DNA of 64,000 bases from Deltaproteobacteria bacterium (GTDB taxonomy: Bacteria > Desulfobacterota > Desulfobaccia > Desulfobaccales > 0-14-0-80-60-11). The translations under genes and the position numbers were made by a program. The stretch lies in NCBI GenBank assembly GCA_016874975.1, contig VGSQ01000002.1:98-64097 (forward strand), written 5' to 3'. How positions within the stretch are numbered: position 1 is the first letter of the stretch; every line of letters begins with the position of its first letter. Positions 14,275-38,201 of the stretch are shown here, one piece after another. Below the pieces are notes generated by a model. The model did not search any database. It was not told where the DNA came from and saw nothing but the letters and a program-made list of their open reading frames with translations.

Positions 14275-14322
14275 GTAGGGCGCGTCTTACGCGCCAAAGC
14301 TGGTGCGTGAGACGCACCCTAC
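14275..14322. repeat. Double-hairpin copy of the GTAGGGTGCG...CGCACC intergenic repeat (module R1)
   Basis: GTAGGG-CGCGTCTTACGCG-CCAAAGCTG-GTGCGTGAGACGCAC-CCTAC. Two inner hairpins (GGCGCGT/ACGCGCC and GGTGCGT/ACGCACC) nested in an outer GTAGGG/CCCTAC inverted repeat. Confidence 0.8.
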
Positions 14323-14356
14323 ATTCATTGTCATTCCCAGACTCTCCGGCGCCGAC

Positions 14357-15904
14357 ATGCTCGATCCCCATGCCCAAAAAGTCCTGATACTGGATTTCGG
14401 CTCCCAGTACACCCAGCTCATCGCCCGGAGGGTGCGGGAGCTCAAGGTCTACTGCGAGATCCATCCCTACTTCATGCCCCTGGACCGCATCCGGGCCTTC
14501 GCCCCGGGCGGCATCATCCTGTCGGGCGGCCCCCGCAGCGTCTACGAGGACGACGCGCCCTTGCTCGACCCCGCGGTCCTCCACCTGGGGGCGCCGGTGC
14601 TGGGCATCTGCTACGGCATCCAGCTCCTGTGCCACCTCCTGGGCGGGAAAGTGGTCCCCGCGGTCTCCCGGGAATACGGCCGCAAGGCCTTTGAAATCCG
14701 GGACGCCCAGGATCTCTTCTACGGCCTGCCGGTCCGGGAGACGGTCTGGATGAGCCACGGCGACCGGGTGGATGAGGCGCCTCAGGGCTTTGAGATCATC
14801 GGCGCCAGCGATTCCAGCCCGGTGGGCGCGGTGCGGGACGCAGGCCGCCGCCTCTTCGGGGTGCAGTTCCACCCCGAGGTGCACCACACCCCCCGGGGCA
14901 AGGAAATCCTGGCCAATTTCCTCTTCCGCATCTGCGGCCTCAAGCCCCTGTGGACCATGGCCTCCTTCATCGAAGCCACCACCGAGGCCATCCGCCGGGA
15001 GGTGGGGGAGGACCGGGTCATCTGCGCGCTGTCCGGCGGCGTGGACTCTTCGGTGACCGCGGTGCTGGTGCACCGGGCCGTGGGCGAGCGCCTCACCTGC
15101 ATCTTCGTCAACAACGGTCTCTTGCGCCACCGGGAGGCCGAAGAGGTGCTCCACCTCTTCCGGGACCAGCGCCACCTCAACATCATTTACGTGGACGCCG
15201 CCGACGCCTTTCTGGCTCGCCTGGACGGCATCACCGACCCCGAGGAAAAGCGGGTGCGCATCGGCCACGAGTTCATCCGCATCTTCGCGGAGGAGGCCCG
15301 CAAATTGGGGGGCGTCAAGTACCTGGCCCAGGGGACGCTCTATCCCGACGTCATCGAAAGCGTCTCCTTCAAGGGGCCGTCGGCCACCATCAAGACGCAC
15401 CACAACGTGGGCGGCCTGCCTGAGGTGATGCCCCTCCAACTCCTGGAGCCGCTCCGGGAGCTTTTCAAGGACGAGGTGCGGGAGGTGGGCGCGGCCCTGG
15501 AGCTGCCCGACTCCCTCATCTGGCGCCACCCCTTCCCCGGCCCCGGCCTGGCCATCCGCATCCTGGGGGAGGTCACCCCCGAGCGGCTGGCCGTGCTGCG
15601 GGAGGCGGACGCCATCGTCATGGAGGAGATGGAGCGGGCCGGCGTCTACCGTCAGGTCTGGCAGGGGTTCGCGGTGCTGCTGCCCATCCGCACGGTGGGG
15701 GTGATGGGGGACGAGCGCACCTACGAGAACGTCATCGCCCTGCGCATCGTGGACTCCCAGGACGCCATGACCGCGGACTGGACCCGCCTGCCCCACGATT
15801 TCCTGGCCCACCTCTCCAACCGCCTCATCAACGAGGTCAAGGGGGTCAACCGGGTGGTGCTGGACATCTCGAGCAAACCGCCGGCGACGATTGAATGGGA
15901 ATGA
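14357..15904 (+). CDS. guaA: GMP synthase (glutamine-hydrolysing)
   Basis: Start at [28 protein letters not shown]. GATase and ATP-PPase (SGGVDSSV) motifs. Ends with the canonical PPATIEWE. Confidence 0.95.
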
Positions 15905-15940
15905 TAATCATTTTCTATCTAACCAAACAGGAGAAACAAA

Positions 15941-16276
15941 ATGTATGAGGGTTTATGGACAGTTGAATTTATATCGGAGATGAATCGAACTGGCAAGGGT
16001 GTAATAATATTAACGAAAGATGGGCGCCTTTTAGGGGGCGATTCCGGTTATTACTACTCAGGCACATATAATATTGCTAACGATAACAAAATATCTGGTC
16101 AAGTTCTTGTCATCAGATATAATCCTAATGCCATGTCTGTCCTAGGAGATAAAAACAATTTTAAGCTTTATTTTACTGGTCAAATTGATAATCTTCATTT
16201 GTCGGCAACCGCTAAGACCCAAGAAATGCCTCAATACACAATGAAAATTATTGCTAACAGGAAGGCTGATTTTTAA
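15941..16276 (+). CDS. GrlR-like (lipocalin-like beta-barrel) small protein; candidate antitoxin/partner of the downstream RSH protein
   Basis: AGGAG RBS and AT-rich codons. The pattern GLWTVEFIS..G.GVIILTKDGRLLGGDSGYYYSGTY...VLVIRYNPNAMSVLG parallels the GrlR family (G.Y...FIS...G.G...I..G...GGD...Y.G......RYN...SVL). Similarity judged by eye only. Confidence 0.55.
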   Translation: MYEGLWTVEFISEMNRTGKGVIILTKDGRLLGGDSGYYYSGTYNIANDNKISGQVLVIRYNPNAMSVLGDKNNFKLYFTGQIDNLHLSATAKTQEMPQYTMKIIANRKADF

Positions 16277-16278
16277 CA

Positions 16279-16911
16279 ATGAAATATAATATTGAAGAAA
16301 TTTATGCGGAATATAAAATAAGAGAAGAGAATGCCCTGCTTCTCATTGAGGAGGTTAAATTTATTATATTAGAATGTATCAATAGGGAAAAAATTAATAT
16401 TCACTCATTAAAGAATAGATTCAAAGAGTTTGATTCATTTTTAGGCAAAGTAGAGAGGAAAAAGTCAGAAAATCCCTTTCATGAAATATATGATTTAATA
16501 GGTTTTAGAATTACCTGCTTGTTTCTGGAAGACATTCAAAACATTAGTGATTTGCTAAAAATAAATTTTGAATTAATAGAAACTTTTGACTCTATGGAAG
16601 AAGGAGATTATGATGTGTTTGGATATATGGCTTGTCATCATAAGGCCATGCTAAAACATAATTCAAAATTTAATGGAATAGCAAAAAATTACCCATTTGA
16701 GATACAAGTTATGACTATTGCTAAAAATGCCTGGGCCTCTATTTCCCATCACCTTTTTTATAAAAAGGAGTTTTTCCTCCCGGACAACCTGAAACGAGAT
16801 TTCCATGCCTTGAGTGCTTTGTTGTATATTGCTGACAAGCAATTCTCATTACTTCGCAAAGAGCAATTTGTATATTATTTAGAACAAGTTGATAAATTGA
16901 ATGGGGACTAA
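16279..16911 (+). CDS. Stand-alone RelA/SpoT-homologue synthetase (nucleotidyltransferase) domain protein, small-alarmone-synthetase/toxSAS-like
   Basis: Ordered RSH synthetase motifs SLKNRFKEFDSFLGKVERKK, YDLIGFRITCLF, FGYMACHH, FEIQVMTIAKNAWASISHHLFYK. No HD hydrolase or C-terminal regulatory domains. Starts 2 nt after the upstream ORF. Confidence 0.8.
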   Translation: MKYNIEEIYAEYKIREENALLLIEEVKFIILECINREKINIHSLKNRFKEFDSFLGKVERKKSENPFHEIYDLIGFRITCLFLEDIQNISDLLKINFELIETFDSMEEGDYDVFGYMACHHKAMLKHNSKFNGIAKNYPFEIQVMTIAKNAWASISHHLFYKKEFFLPDNLKRDFHALSALLYIADKQFSLLRKEQFVYYLEQVDKLNGD

Positions 16912-16913
16912 TA

Positions 16914-17939
16914 GTGAGTAATAGTAGACCATCGGTCAATTTTTTCCGAGAAATATTAGGACAAATTCAGGTCTTAATATATTTGAAAACAGCCTTGCAG
17001 GTTGGCCGCCTGGCCCACGCCTATCTGTTCCTGGGTCCCGAAGGGGTGGGCAAGGCCTCCACCGCCCGGGCCCTGGCCGCGGCCCTGAACTGCGAGAGTC
17101 TGCGGGAGGACGGCGACGCCTGCGGGAGGTGCCCCTCCTGTCGCCGCCTGGCCGCCGGGACCCATCCCGATTATCTGGAGATTTTTCCCACTTCCGAGGG
17201 CCGGCAGCCTCAGATCAAGATCGAACGGATTCGCGATCTGCGTCGCCTCACGGCCTATCCGCCCCTGGGCGGCGGCTGGCGGGTGGTGCTCATCAAACCC
17301 GCGGAAGCTTTGAACGACGCCGCGGCCAACGCCCTGCTGAAGACCCTGGAGGAGCCCCCGGAGCAGAACCTGTTGGTGCTCACCGCGGGGGTGGAGGACA
17401 ACCTGTTCCCCACGGTGGTCTCCCGCTGCCAGAAGCTGGCCTTTACGCCCCTGCCCCTCCCCCTGATCCGGGATGAACTGGCGCGGCGGGGCGCCGAGCC
17501 CGCCCAGGCCGGCCTGCTGGCGGCCCTGAGCGGCGGCTCCCTGGCCCGGGCGTTGGCGCTCAATTATGACGAGATGGTGGAAAAGCGCCGCCAGGTGCTG
17601 GCCGACCTGGAGCAGCTTGCGGACGGCAACACCGCGCCCCTGCTGGACTGGGCCCAGCGTCTGGCCAAGCAGGCGGGCGAGGCGGAGGCCTTCCTGGGGC
17701 TGGCCGCCCTGTGGCACCGGGATCTTATCCTCCTGGGCCAGGGCGCCCCGGCGGAGCTGCTGGCGAACCGGGACTGCCTGCCGGAGATGGAGGCAGCCTG
17801 CCGCCGGCAGCGCCCTGGGGTCTGGTTCCGCCGCTTCGCCGCCATCGCCGCGGCCCAGCGGCATCTCCGGGCCAACCTCAATCCCGAACTGACCCTGGAC
17901 TTCCTGGGACTACATCTCCGAGGAGGCCCTACCCCATGA
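16914..17939 (+). CDS. holB: DNA polymerase III subunit delta-prime
   Basis: FREILGQ...GRLAHAYLFLGPEGVGKA Walker-A-like region, Zn module CESLREDGDACGRCPSCRR, and SRCQKLAF. GTG start 2 nt after the RSH stop. The first ~20 codons are AT-rich. Confidence 0.85.
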   Translation: MSNSRPSVNFFREILGQIQVLIYLKTALQVGRLAHAYLFLGPEGVGKASTARALAAALNCESLREDGDACGRCPSCRRLAAGTHPDYLEIFPTSEGRQPQIKIERIRDLRRLTAYPPLGGGWRVVLIKPAEALNDAAANALLKTLEEPPEQNLLVLTAGVEDNLFPTVVSRCQKLAFTPLPLPLIRDELARRGAEPAQAGLLAALSGGSLARALALNYDEMVEKRRQVLADLEQLADGNTAPLLDWAQRLAKQAGEAEAFLGLAALWHRDLILLGQGAPAELLANRDCLPEMEAACRRQRPGVWFRRFAAIAAAQRHLRANLNPELTLDFLGLHLRGGPTP

Positions 17940-35703: not shown

Positions 35704-36711
35704 ATGGCGAAAGTAGCCATCAACGGCATGGGCAGAATCGGGCGGGCCGCCTTCAAGATCATCCTGGAGACCCCGGAGTTGGAACTGGTGGCCATGAACG
35801 ACCTCATGGACCTGGACAATCTGGCCTATCTCCTCAAGTACGACACCGTCTACGGGCGCTACGGCAAGTCGGTGGCCGTTGAGGGCAACAACCTGGTGGT
35901 GGACGGCAAGGCCTACCCGGTCTACAAAGAAAAAGACCCCACCCAGCTCCCGTGGGGAAAGCTGGGCGTGCAGGCGGTCTTTGAGTGCACCGGCGTCTTC
36001 ACCAAGGGGGGCGACCTGGAGAAGCACCTCCAGGCCGGGGCGCAACTGGTCTTTCTGTCCGCTCCGCCCAAGACGGACGATGTCTGCTGCATCGTCCACG
36101 GGGTGACCACGCCGGAGAAGGGGACCCGGATCATCTCCTGCGCCAGTTGCACCACCAACTGCATCACCCCGGTTTTTGAGGTCATGGCCCGGCGCATCGG
36201 CGTCAGGAAGGCCATCATGACCACCATCCACGCCTACACCTCGTCCCAGGCCATCGTGGACGGCCCCGCCAAGAAGTGGCGCCGGGGCCGGGCCGGGGCC
36301 GCCAACTTCGTGCCCACCTCCACCGGCGCGGCCAAGGCCACCACCAACGCCCTGCCCCAGTTCCACGGCAAGTTCGACGGCGTGGCGGTGCGGGGGCCGG
36401 TGCCCTGCGGCTCCCTGGCCGATCTGGTCTTCCTCACCGAACGGCCCACCACGGTGGAGGAAGTGAACCACATCTTCCGGGAGGAGGCCGCCGGCGACCG
36501 CTACCGGGGCATCATGGGCGTGGCCGAAGACCCCATCGTCAGCGCCGACATCATCATGGATTCCCGAGCCTCGGTGGTGGATCTGGAGATGACCCAGGTG
36601 GTGGACGGCGACCTGGTGAAGATTATGACCTGGTACGACAACGAATGGGGCTACACCAACCAGATGATCCGGGAAGCCCGGCGGTCGTTGCAGGAACTGG
36701 GGATGCTATAG
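35704..36711 (+). CDS. gap: Glyceraldehyde-3-phosphate dehydrogenase, type I
   Basis: AAGGAGG RBS. MAKVAINGMGRIGR NAD-binding motif, catalytic ASCTTNC, and WYDNEWGY near the C-terminus. Confidence 0.93.
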   Translation: MAKVAINGMGRIGRAAFKIILETPELELVAMNDLMDLDNLAYLLKYDTVYGRYGKSVAVEGNNLVVDGKAYPVYKEKDPTQLPWGKLGVQAVFECTGVFTKGGDLEKHLQAGAQLVFLSAPPKTDDVCCIVHGVTTPEKGTRIISCASCTTNCITPVFEVMARRIGVRKAIMTTIHAYTSSQAIVDGPAKKWRRGRAGAANFVPTSTGAAKATTNALPQFHGKFDGVAVRGPVPCGSLADLVFLTERPTTVEEVNHIFREEAAGDRYRGIMGVAEDPIVSADIIMDSRASVVDLEMTQVVDGDLVKIMTWYDNEWGYTNQMIREARRSLQELGML

Positions 36712-36780
36712 AAGGCTTGTGGTGAGGGTCGGGGGAGTCTCGACTTCCCCGGCCCTAACAGAGTTAAGGGATTGGGGGGG

Positions 36781-36799
36781 TAAGGGCCTGCGGCCCTTA
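36781..36799. terminator. Perfect hairpin between the convergent gap and AT-rich gene
   Basis: TAAGGGCC-TGC-GGCCCTTA. No clear U-run, so function as a bidirectional terminator is tentative. Confidence 0.35.
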
Positions 36800-36832
36800 G
36801 CCCCCTCTCTCAGCTTGTACCTTATATTATTT

Positions 36833-37535
36833 TTATAAAGTTAAATCCCAGGCTGCCCGGTAACCATCAGTAAAAATTACTTTTTTAAACCCCATCTCAC
36901 GCCATTTAGCAGCCAATTTGCCATCATTTGTCAATTGGTGGACAAGTGGTCGCCCCATAAGCACCCATTTCAGCTTTAATGTTCTAGATTCCTTCCCTAA
37001 AACCTTTACAGAGATGTCATATCCGCGATTTAAAAATTCATTCTCTAACAAGCCTGCATACAAAATGCGCTTAGCCTCTAGGTCCTTTTCTTTGGCTTTC
37101 TTAGCAAGACGGTCCAATTCACAATAATGGGCCTCCACTTTTTTTAATAAACGTTGAGCCTCAGGATATTCTTTGTCGGAGGCCTCGATAGATTTTAGAA
37201 GGGCTTCGGCTTCAGGGATACGGTGCTTTCCTGGTTTATAATTAGACTTGTCAGCAAGAATTGCCTTCGCTTCGAGGAGGCGTTGAGCAGATGGCTTGCT
37301 CTCAGTTTTAGCAGAGGGTTGAATTTCATCGGTTGATTTGCGGGGTTCCTGAATATCAATAATTTTTTTTAGCGGATTCGGGTTTTGAGCTATGGATTGG
37401 CGCCGATGGATGGATTGTAGTTGTTTTTTGGGACGGATCGTTTGGAGTCTTGAAGAAGATAACGTAAATCGCTACGAGGGCAAGAATTAAGGGAACATAT
37501 TTTAATGGCAGATATGGGCTTCGGCCATTAGACAT
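36833..37535 (-). pseudogene. AT-rich gene for a membrane-anchored protein, interrupted by a +1 frame change at an A8 homopolymer (frameshifted, phase-variable or slippage-dependent)
   Basis: GGAGG RBS and ATG at 37535. The N-terminal frame (MSNGRSPYLPLKYVPLILALVAIYVIFF...) stops at 37356-37358 just after the A8 run (T8 on + strand, 37363-37370). The +1 frame is open from ~37480 to the stop at 36833. ATG to stop is 703 nt, one more than a multiple of three. Confidence 0.5.
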
Positions 37536-37577
37536 GACCGCCTCCTAAAACTTCGACCTAAAATTCCTAACCAGACA

Positions 37578-38201
37578 TTACATAATTCGAATACCCTTCT
37601 TCGGTTCCGGCTGCGGCTCGGGGGCCGGGGCTTTCTTTTCCTCGGGCGGCGCCTTGGCCGGAGCGGGTTTCTCCGTCGGCTTGCCGGGCGGAGGTTCGGC
37701 CGCCTCCGCCGGTTTGGGAGTCCGGCGGGGTTTGGTTTCCTCGGCGGGCTTTTTCCTGGCGCCGGGTTCTGCGGTCTCCGCCGGTTTCACGGGCTTTTCC
37801 GGCAGCCCCGGCTTTTCCGGTCTGGCGGTCTCCGGCGGCCTGGGCAGACCAGGCGGGGGCGGCGCCGCTTCCACCGCCGCGGGGGAGAGGAACCGGGTGG
37901 CCACCCACCCCAAGGTGCCGTCCTTCTTCACCCGAACCTGGGACCAGTCGTCCGATTCGCCCAACTTCTCCACAATCTCGTTGCGCTCCAGCGCGGCCAC
38001 CTTGGGGCAGTCCATGCCCGGACAGGCCCGCAGGTTGAGACGGCTGGCGTTCACATAGAAAATCGGCCGGGGGGCGGCGGGGGGCGGCGCGGCAGTCGGC
38101 GGCGCCGGGGCCGGCGGGGGCGTCTGGTAGATCACCGGCGTGCAGCCGAAACCGGCCAGGACCAGGAGCGTCAGCCACGCCCAGGTTATTCTCAACCGCA
38201 T
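37578..38201 (-). CDS. SH3 (SH3_3) domain lipoprotein with Pro/Ala/Glu/Lys-rich tail
   Basis: Start at MRLRITWAWLTLLVLAGFGC (lipobox). SH3b-like YVNASRLNLRACPGMDCPKVAALERNEIVEKLGESDDWSQVRVKKDGTLGWVATRFL. Confidence 0.75.
   Translation of the reverse strand: MRLRITWAWLTLLVLAGFGCTPVIYQTPPPAPAPPTAAPPPAAPRPIFYVNASRLNLRACPGMDCPKVAALERNEIVEKLGESDDWSQVRVKKDGTLGWVATRFLSPAAVEAAPPPPGLPRPPETARPEKPGLPEKPVKPAETAEPGARKKPAEETKPRRTPKPAEAAEPPPGKPTEKPAPAKAPPEEKKAPAPEPQPEPKKGIRIM

Follow-up and report, generated by a model that had tools for sequence, protein, structure and literature searches.

Toxic small alarmone synthetases (toxSAS; FaRel2/ATfaRel2, PhRel, PhRel2, split CapRel and FaRel) are encoded as stand-alone synthetase-domain (SYNTH) genes in abutting or overlapping bicistrons, with the gene of a small structured partner placed first (PMC7229694, PMC11782079). 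A conserved toxin-antitoxin-like two-gene arrangement indicated toxicity in five of the five small alarmone synthetase subfamilies tested (PMC7229694), and (p)ppGpp or (p)ppApp overproduced in the cytoplasm inhibits growth by itself (PMC12691689). Two neutralisation strategies, each linked to a type of substrate, have been described for toxSAS: in tRNA-targeting enzymes the site of the ATP donor is blocked by the pZFD, and in (pp)pApp synthetases that of the acceptor is blocked by Tis1-like domains (PMC11782079). Here we describe a locus with the same gene plan and a different partner. It lies between guaA and holB in a 64,000-nucleotide (nt) stretch of contig VGSQ01000002.1 from a Deltaproteobacteria bacterium (assembly GCA_016874975.1), a stretch that we call the window. 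It consists of open reading frame (ORF) A, which encodes a GrlR-fold β-barrel, and ORF B, which encodes a single-domain RelA/SpoT homolog (RSH). Like the toxSAS, the pair is an abutting bicistron with the small partner first, its spread over phyla is patchy, its enzyme lineage holds both fused and split versions, and the ATP-donor residues are conserved. We propose, with a probability of about 0.5, that A and B form a self-contained, translationally coupled, toxin-antitoxin-like module in which B is inhibited by bound A; the pair is probably a variant of the toxSAS theme. The bicistron theme itself is already known (PMC7229694), and what would be new is the partner fold together with a RelQ/RelP-like enzyme.

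A and B recur in many phyla as one conserved pair of closely coupled genes. A B-seeded profile scan of GTDB species genomes and IMG/VR returned 86 loci, to which 6 further contigs were added. In this set an A-type gene lies directly 5' of B in 23 non-redundant loci, which span Thermodesulfobacteriota, Nitrospirota, Planctomycetota, Thiotrichales, Eubacteriales, Bathyarchaeia and a Woesearchaeota-labelled groundwater contig. B is short in all 23 (174-229 residues), and no short B homolog with upstream sequence in this search was without A. The two genes are 2 nt apart here, and in most other loci they overlap or are separated by no more than ~13 nt. Seeding with A gave the converse result: among the best 80 of 153 metagenome loci encoding an A relative, an RSH gene lies directly 3' in 58, the contig is too short in 6, and A stands alone or beside another gene in 16. 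L138 is the only close A homolog with room for a B gene but without one. Distances among A proteins track those among B proteins (r = 0.895 over 19 pairs), and none of 5000 Mantel permutations reached this value. The association between GrlR-like and small RSH genes, which a preliminary description of this DNA had proposed to survey across genomes, is thus found from both sides. Nine loci (L013, L034, L041, L044, L106, L110, L121, L146 and L168) carry a truncated, frameshifted or interrupted B beside a full-length A, and full-length A occurs alone in 11 loci; no intact short B was seen without A. This pattern is suggestive of recurrent decay of B while A is retained. No third conserved gene accompanies the pair, and its neighbours are heterogeneous and mostly housekeeping.

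The features of the locus in the window are as follows.

14303..15904, plus strand: guaA (GMP synthase), the upstream flank; GC content at third codon positions (GC3) 0.91; stop TGA at 15902-15904.
15905..16995, no strand: AT-rich tract, from the guaA stop to ~80 nt inside holB.
15929..15933, plus strand: AGGAG ribosome-binding site, 7 nt 5' of the ORF A ATG (15941).
15941..16276, plus strand: ORF A, 111 residues, GrlR-fold eight-stranded β-barrel, proposed to neutralise or regulate B as its partner; stop TAA at 16274-16276.
16279..16911, plus strand: ORF B, 210 residues, single-domain RSH (SYNTH) pyrophosphokinase by homology, starting 2 nt after the ORF A stop.
16405..16464, plus strand: ATP-donor phosphate-binding segment of B (R47, K49, S53, K57, R60), counterparts of FaRel2 residues.
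16489..16524, plus strand: DxxGxR catalytic segment of B (D72, G75, R77), family-invariant, counterparts of FaRel2 D90, G93 and R95.
16618..16641, plus strand: G-loop of B (acceptor site), with the invariant G115-Y116 aligned to the GY of RelQ 'SGYRSYH'.
16696..16764, plus strand: EIQ segment of B (E141, Q143), with Met145 at the position of the homologs' Arg.
16914..17939, plus strand: holB (DNA polymerase III delta'), the downstream flank; GTG start 2 nt after the ORF B stop.
16914..16995, plus strand: first ~28 codons of holB, within AT-rich DNA, encoding the conserved FFR(D/E)ILGQ...GRLAHAYLF N-terminus.

The four genes are packed in an operon-like manner, no terminator-like site was found between any of them, and the guaA stop, ribosome-binding site, ORF A stop (16274-16276), ORF B start (16279) and 2-nt gap that the preliminary description reported are all confirmed. 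The guaA ORF is listed from a GTG at 14303; an ortholog-like MLDPH start is encoded from the ATG at 14357, which is probably the true start because orthologs begin at MLDPH.

Residues 47-164 of ORF B score 66.7 bits against Pfam RelA_SpoT (PF04607; cut-off 27). This is its sole Pfam match, and its predicted model (AlphaFold; mean predicted local distance difference test, pLDDT, 85.9) comprises the SYNTH core and flanking helices only. The RSH identity assigned earlier from four motifs, which are present at residues 43-62, 71-82, 114-121 and 140-162, is upheld, as is the lack of HD, TGS and ACT domains in this 210-residue protein. A sequence search of the PDB returned RelQ/YjbM (5f2v) and RelP/YwaC as best matches (E 5.5e-13). 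When a B family profile built from 28 members was compared with the PDB, where toxSAS are represented by their solved structures only, it matched RelQ/RelP at E ~1e-24, the CapRel structures 7ZTB and 9ERV at 1.3e-7 and FaRel2 at 0.04, and left Tas1 unmatched. Foldseek with the B model also placed RelQ/RelP on top (E ~1e-10), with CapRel at ~3e-6. With RelQ (YjbM/SAS1) and RelP (YwaC/SAS2), B shares a length of ~210 residues, a long N-terminal helix, C-terminal helices and the RxKxxxSxxxK, DxxGxR, GY and EIQ motifs. Identity to either enzyme is only 22-27%, however; B has Asp in place of the RelQ Lys that precedes the G-loop GY by four residues, and Met in place of the Arg that follows GY, and short B always has a GrlR-like gene upstream where this was checked. 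Neither RelQ nor RelP is known to need a dedicated partner gene. B scores 61.8 bits against the NCBIfam YjbM/RelQ equivalog NF053588, below the cut-off of 320, and on these scores is a relative of RelQ but not its ortholog. The earlier classification as a toxSAS-type candidate stands for the conserved bicistron with a small partner and sits less well with the enzyme, which is much closer to RelQ/RelP than to CapRel or FaRel2. The distance of B from every solved toxSAS, set against its kinship with RelQ/RelP, is why we infer toxSAS membership and toxicity for B rather than assign them by class.

The ATP-donor and catalytic residues described for FaRel2 are R64, K66, S70, K74, R77, D90, G93, R95, E145 and Q147, together with Y128 of the G-loop (PMC11782079). 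We located their counterparts in B by an offset from the profile-match coordinates and then checked the residues in the sequence. Since the whole set is matched (R47, K49, S53, K57, R60, D72, G75, R77, E141, Q143 and, in the G-loop, Y116), B is plausibly an active pyrophosphokinase. The B proteins are near-neutral, with a median isoelectric point (pI) of 6.3. The preliminary description had also drawn attention to a Met in place of the Arg of the EIQxRT motif of housekeeping synthetases. Met145 is real, but it is not a feature of the class, as the position is Arg in 27 of 27 database homologs.

ORF A matches Pfam GrlR (PF16518) marginally, at 29.0 bits (E 1.2e-6, cut-off 26.8), and has no other Pfam match. 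Its family profile matches only GrlR in the PDB (2ovs/4kt5, E 1.1e-5). The predicted model is an eight-stranded barrel (AlphaFold, pLDDT 94) that Foldseek superimposes on GrlR 4KT5/2OVS (TM 0.82-0.84, E 3.5e-8 to 1e-7); no further match is better than E 2.5e-3. Profile, structure match and fold all agree with the GrlR-like identity given to this gene at the outset. Tis1 (6OX6) and the CapRel pZFD are absent among the top 50 Foldseek matches listed for A, and a Tis1-like or pZFD-like assignment was rejected, Foldseek being significant only for GrlR. By Pfam and Foldseek, A belongs to none of the toxSAS partner classes pZFD/PAD1, Tis1-like, Panacea and SAH, and in this the pair differs from described toxSAS, as it does in having an enzyme closer to RelQ/RelP than to any solved toxSAS.

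The reference for this fold is GrlR from the LEE (locus of enterocyte effacement) of enteropathogenic and enterohaemorrhagic Escherichia coli (2OVS, 4KT5). A has the same eight-stranded barrel and size and shares a GGD segment with it, and we propose for A the mode of action of GrlR, which binds and sequesters a second protein, GrlA in the 4KT5 complex. GrlR is itself a ClpXP substrate, a property that would be fitting for a labile antitoxin. The two proteins differ in that their identity is ~22%, that the gene downstream of A is an RSH gene and not the helix-turn-helix activator GrlA, and that there is no LEE context. The GrlR acidic patch is not kept in A, because SEDEDII of GrlR aligns with ANDNKIS. 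A scores 22.4 bits against the NCBIfam LEE GrlR equivalog NF010652 (cut-off 205) and, judged by this, is not an ortholog of LEE GrlR. The GrlR-like superfamily is large, with 1,347 representatives (50% identity, E ≤ 1e-3) that are almost wholly uncharacterised, and nearly all of the best 150 listed are single-domain proteins of ~110 residues. A matches the PHROG profile phrog_2483 (E 9e-9), and no match to A was found in viral contigs, phage records or plasmid records. A literature search, with the gene-neighbourhood tables of PMC7229694 outside its reach, found no publication tying GrlR-like proteins to RSH enzymes, toxSAS, alarmones or antitoxins, in keeping with the earlier remark that no GrlR-fold partner had been described for RSH toxins. 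The texts of PMC7229694 and PMC12691689 are among those that gave no such link, and GrlR goes unmentioned in the text and available supplements of PMC10440598 (NetFlax).

The close B relatives that have no A gene differ from those described above in length. All are 310-400 residues long (about 340) and carry a conserved extra C-terminal domain with the pattern INLDxLxAYLxxKFPDR...DVGxVR; they fall in the range L015-L049 and at L087, L173 (MW584157.1 gp42) and L174 (NZ_CP072056.1). Lone long forms include gp42 (339 residues) in the accessory region of the Mycobacterium abscessus prophage prophi68-1 and a 341-residue protein on the Bacillus mycoides plasmid pBM482. In their size, their N-terminal SYNTH domain with a C-terminal extension and the residence of some on a prophage or plasmid, the long forms resemble the fused toxin-antitoxin proteins of the CapRel(SJ46) type, whose structure is a detectable homolog of the B family (E 1.3e-7). 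B itself differs from CapRel in ending at residue 210, with no C-terminal pZFD domain. The extra domain of the long relatives has no match in CapRel, the PDB or Pfam and no visible Cys or Zn-finger-like motifs. An assignment of the long relatives to CapRel proper is not supported: the L027 long form has no CapRel match, and the C-terminal profile gives nothing relevant in the PDB and no Pfam domain. The idea that A is homologous to this domain was likewise rejected (hhalign probability 0.3%). PADLOC returned only weak PDC-S33 matches for B and its long relatives, all within the SYNTH region.

Fused and split versions are documented for CapRel and its split relatives (PMC11782079). The long and short B forms follow the same logic with non-homologous parts. 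Because the long forms fall both outside and among the short ones in a neighbour-joining tree, the topology suggests descent of the split pair, a short enzyme plus a separate GrlR-like gene, from an ancestral fused form. A second, divergent RSH subfamily (354-391 residues; DITDLxGLRIITYY, EIQITS) also has a GrlR-like gene (108-120 residues) directly 5', a few nt away or overlapping, at L150, L151, L156 (L156:2998-4440), L158, L164, L165 and L167. Since it is a distant GrlR-like clade that adjoins this second subfamily, the GrlR/RSH partnership at the level of fold spans at least two RSH lineages. Within L160:1116-4350 an orphan GrlR-like gene stands between two ORFs judged by eye only, one resembling an integron integrase (349 residues, minus strand) and the other, of 329 residues, with an Mrr-like N-terminus, which hints that GrlR-like genes may also travel as cassettes with other partners.

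The composition of the locus bears on its history. The islet has ~32% GC, compared with 64% for the whole window; in 200-nt windows the fraction is 0.27-0.36 within it and 0.65-0.75 on either side, and the remaining 600-nt bins of the 64-kb window all stay at 0.47 or above. GC3 is 0.33 for A and 0.29 for B versus 0.91 for guaA and 0.82 for holB. The hand counts of the preliminary description (38/60 G+C at 15841-15900, 16/60 at 16279-16338) were reproduced exactly. Its placing of the onset right after the guaA stop also holds, the 40-nt GC fraction having dropped to 0.28 at 15890-15900. The end that it gave, 16913, does not: the fraction rises above 0.5 again only at ~16980, and the AT-rich tract reaches ~16995 and therefore includes the first ~28 codons of holB. 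These codons have 23-40% GC here, and orthologs encode the same motif from GC-rich DNA; either the AT-rich tract spread into holB or the 5' end of holB arrived together with the islet.

The same pair occupies the same junction in related Thermodesulfobacteriota. It lies between guaA and holB in L001, L003 and L094, where both flanks are present, and beside whichever of the two genes the contig reaches in L004, L008, L093, L095, L096, L097 and L099. In these guaA-holB-sited pairs (at least 10 other contigs) GC is 30-32% in the pair and 59-70% in the flanks, with a module GC3 of 0.2-0.3 versus 0.75-0.9 in neighbouring genes. Identities between the genomes are 79-87% for guaA, 63-71% for holB, 57-76% for A and 53-77% for B. 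The window lies farthest from the rest in guaA, A and B, and in large part also in holB and PSP1, and the Thermodesulfobacteriota B proteins group together in the neighbour-joining tree. The GC of the pair is also below that of its host in 22 of the 22 other loci tested, by 0.03 to 0.38. The islet is an old resident of the guaA-holB junction and not a recent import, because the same low-GC pair recurs there in at least 10 contigs with a divergence that tracks host divergence. What was first taken for horizontal acquisition on the strength of foreign composition can at most be an ancient event; the pattern resembles a long stay by vertical descent, or exchange inside the clade, in which composition was not ameliorated. 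Boundaries of a mobile element were looked for and not found: the islet has no direct or inverted repeats beside it, no tRNA gene lies in the window, no terminator separates the genes and no Rfam RNA was matched. L001 carries, directly after the B stop, a second copy of ~120 nt from the holB 5' end (L001:5660-5780; compare L001:7095-7220), and after it come an inserted Tll0287-like gene (L001:5948-6940) and then an intact holB. Because of this duplicate and insertion, the B-holB junction is, on the arrangement seen in L001, a site of rearrangement and recombinationally active.

In the mechanism that we infer, B would move pyrophosphate from ATP to an acceptor's 3'-OH. The more likely acceptor is a purine nucleotide, with (p)ppGpp or (p)ppApp as the product, and the less likely one is the tRNA CCA end, a leaning that we take because B is nearest to RelQ/RelP and near-neutral. 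The barrel of A would bind B and keep it inactive, as GrlR sequesters GrlA; once A is lost or displaced, B would be released and growth would stop. The pair has several traits of mobile elements, namely its patchy phyletic spread, its GC below that of the host and, in L005, a toxin-antitoxin neighbour: a Phd/YefM-PIN pair lies 260 nt 3' of A-B on this low-GC groundwater contig (L005:5896-6533). Several observations weigh against a toxin-antitoxin-like module. The non-toxic (p)ppGpp synthetases RelQ/RelP are much nearer relatives of B than the solved toxSAS are. The autoregulation typical of type II antitoxins is not evident, since A lacks a DNA-binding domain. The asymmetry of decay is confounded, as B has twice the length of A and part of the loci came from the A-seeded search. 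The Thermodesulfobacteriota pair is syntenic and looks vertically inherited beside core genes, the neighbours elsewhere are mostly housekeeping, and because of this setting a domesticated regulator also fits. Finally, the window copy of B may be attenuated, because K105S, R145M, Q149K, F182L and H188Q fall on positions that are invariant in 27 of 27 homologs or, for K105S, conserved in 26 of 27. A phage-defence role, which the preliminary description had raised, finds no sign in the genomic context. The 94 neighbouring ORFs of 20 loci are mostly housekeeping (2 match an Eco57I-type methylase family and 2 match UvrD-like helicase families), and a defence-island setting is not supported.

The alternative that survives best is that B is a RelQ/RelP-type (p)ppGpp synthetase for host stress signalling and A a subunit that regulates it or acts as its sensor, such as a barrel that binds a ligand and thereby gates the enzyme, with no role in addiction or defence. 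The kinship of B with RelQ/RelP in both sequence and fold is what this would predict, and a median pI of 6.3 is expected of a nucleotide enzyme and not of a tRNA binder; the conserved guaA-holB position in the Thermodesulfobacteriota clade, with divergence scaling with the host, and the mostly housekeeping neighbours in other phyla point the same way. A signalling enzyme accounts poorly, however, for the patchy bacterial and archaeal distribution and a GC that is everywhere below that of the host, for strict co-occurrence in overlapping or abutting operons with alternative fused forms on a prophage and a plasmid, for the recurrent decay of B with A kept, or for the Phd/PIN pair adjoining the locus in L005, and gene pairs of this layout indicated toxicity in all five synthetase subfamilies tested (PMC7229694). 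We regard it as less likely than the module reading, while ranking it ahead of the other alternatives.

Clearly less probable still is that the window B is an attenuated or dead remnant of a toxin-antitoxin family, the pair persisting only through its embedding in the guaA-holB operon. Window B departs from positions at least 85% conserved among the 27 homologs at 9 sites, compared with 0-5 in close relatives; it is the most divergent Thermodesulfobacteriota copy (53-57% identity), and B is disrupted in nine other loci. Yet both ORFs are full length, and the donor-site and G-loop residues are all intact. R145M is weakened as proof of inactivation, the EIQxRT Arg being absent from the listed FaRel2 donor contacts and replaced in other GrlR-linked RSH genes as well (Met in L018, Lys in L025, Thr in the EIQITS of the second subfamily). 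Extra divergence of window B is also to be expected, because its host lineage is the outgroup for guaA, holB and A too. That A and B are chance neighbours in a hitch-hiking AT-rich fragment is effectively refuted by an order and spacing repeated in more than 60 loci of many phyla and by the correlated divergence.

If A does inhibit B, the implications reach beyond this locus. It is possible, though we would put it slightly below even odds, that GrlR-fold barrels join pZFD and Tis1 as a third class, by structure, of partners that neutralise RSH enzymes, and that the pair represents an unrecognised RSH/GrlR module family spread over at least six bacterial lineages and archaea and at least two divergent RSH subfamilies. 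A GrlR-fold partner acting on a RelQ/RelP-like enzyme would then be a third solution to neutralisation and would test how general the pZFD/Tis1 dichotomy is. It would also give the large GrlR-like superfamily of ~110-residue proteins, known so far only as an E. coli virulence regulator, a first function outside LEE regulation, and would make the boundary between toxic and housekeeping small alarmone synthetases less sharp. The locus offers a natural case for how a gene pair keeps a foreign composition through long vertical descent in an essential-gene operon. Should a novel partner class be the right reading, the persistent low GC at a core-genome junction could reflect either selection on nucleotide composition, for example to hold down the expression of a dangerous enzyme, or alleles replaced time and again at a hotspot. 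At 36600-37800 of the window, just after a GAPDH-like gene, GC dips a second time and less deeply (0.47-0.53); this patch contains a 101-residue ORF (36833-37138, minus strand) with no assigned function.

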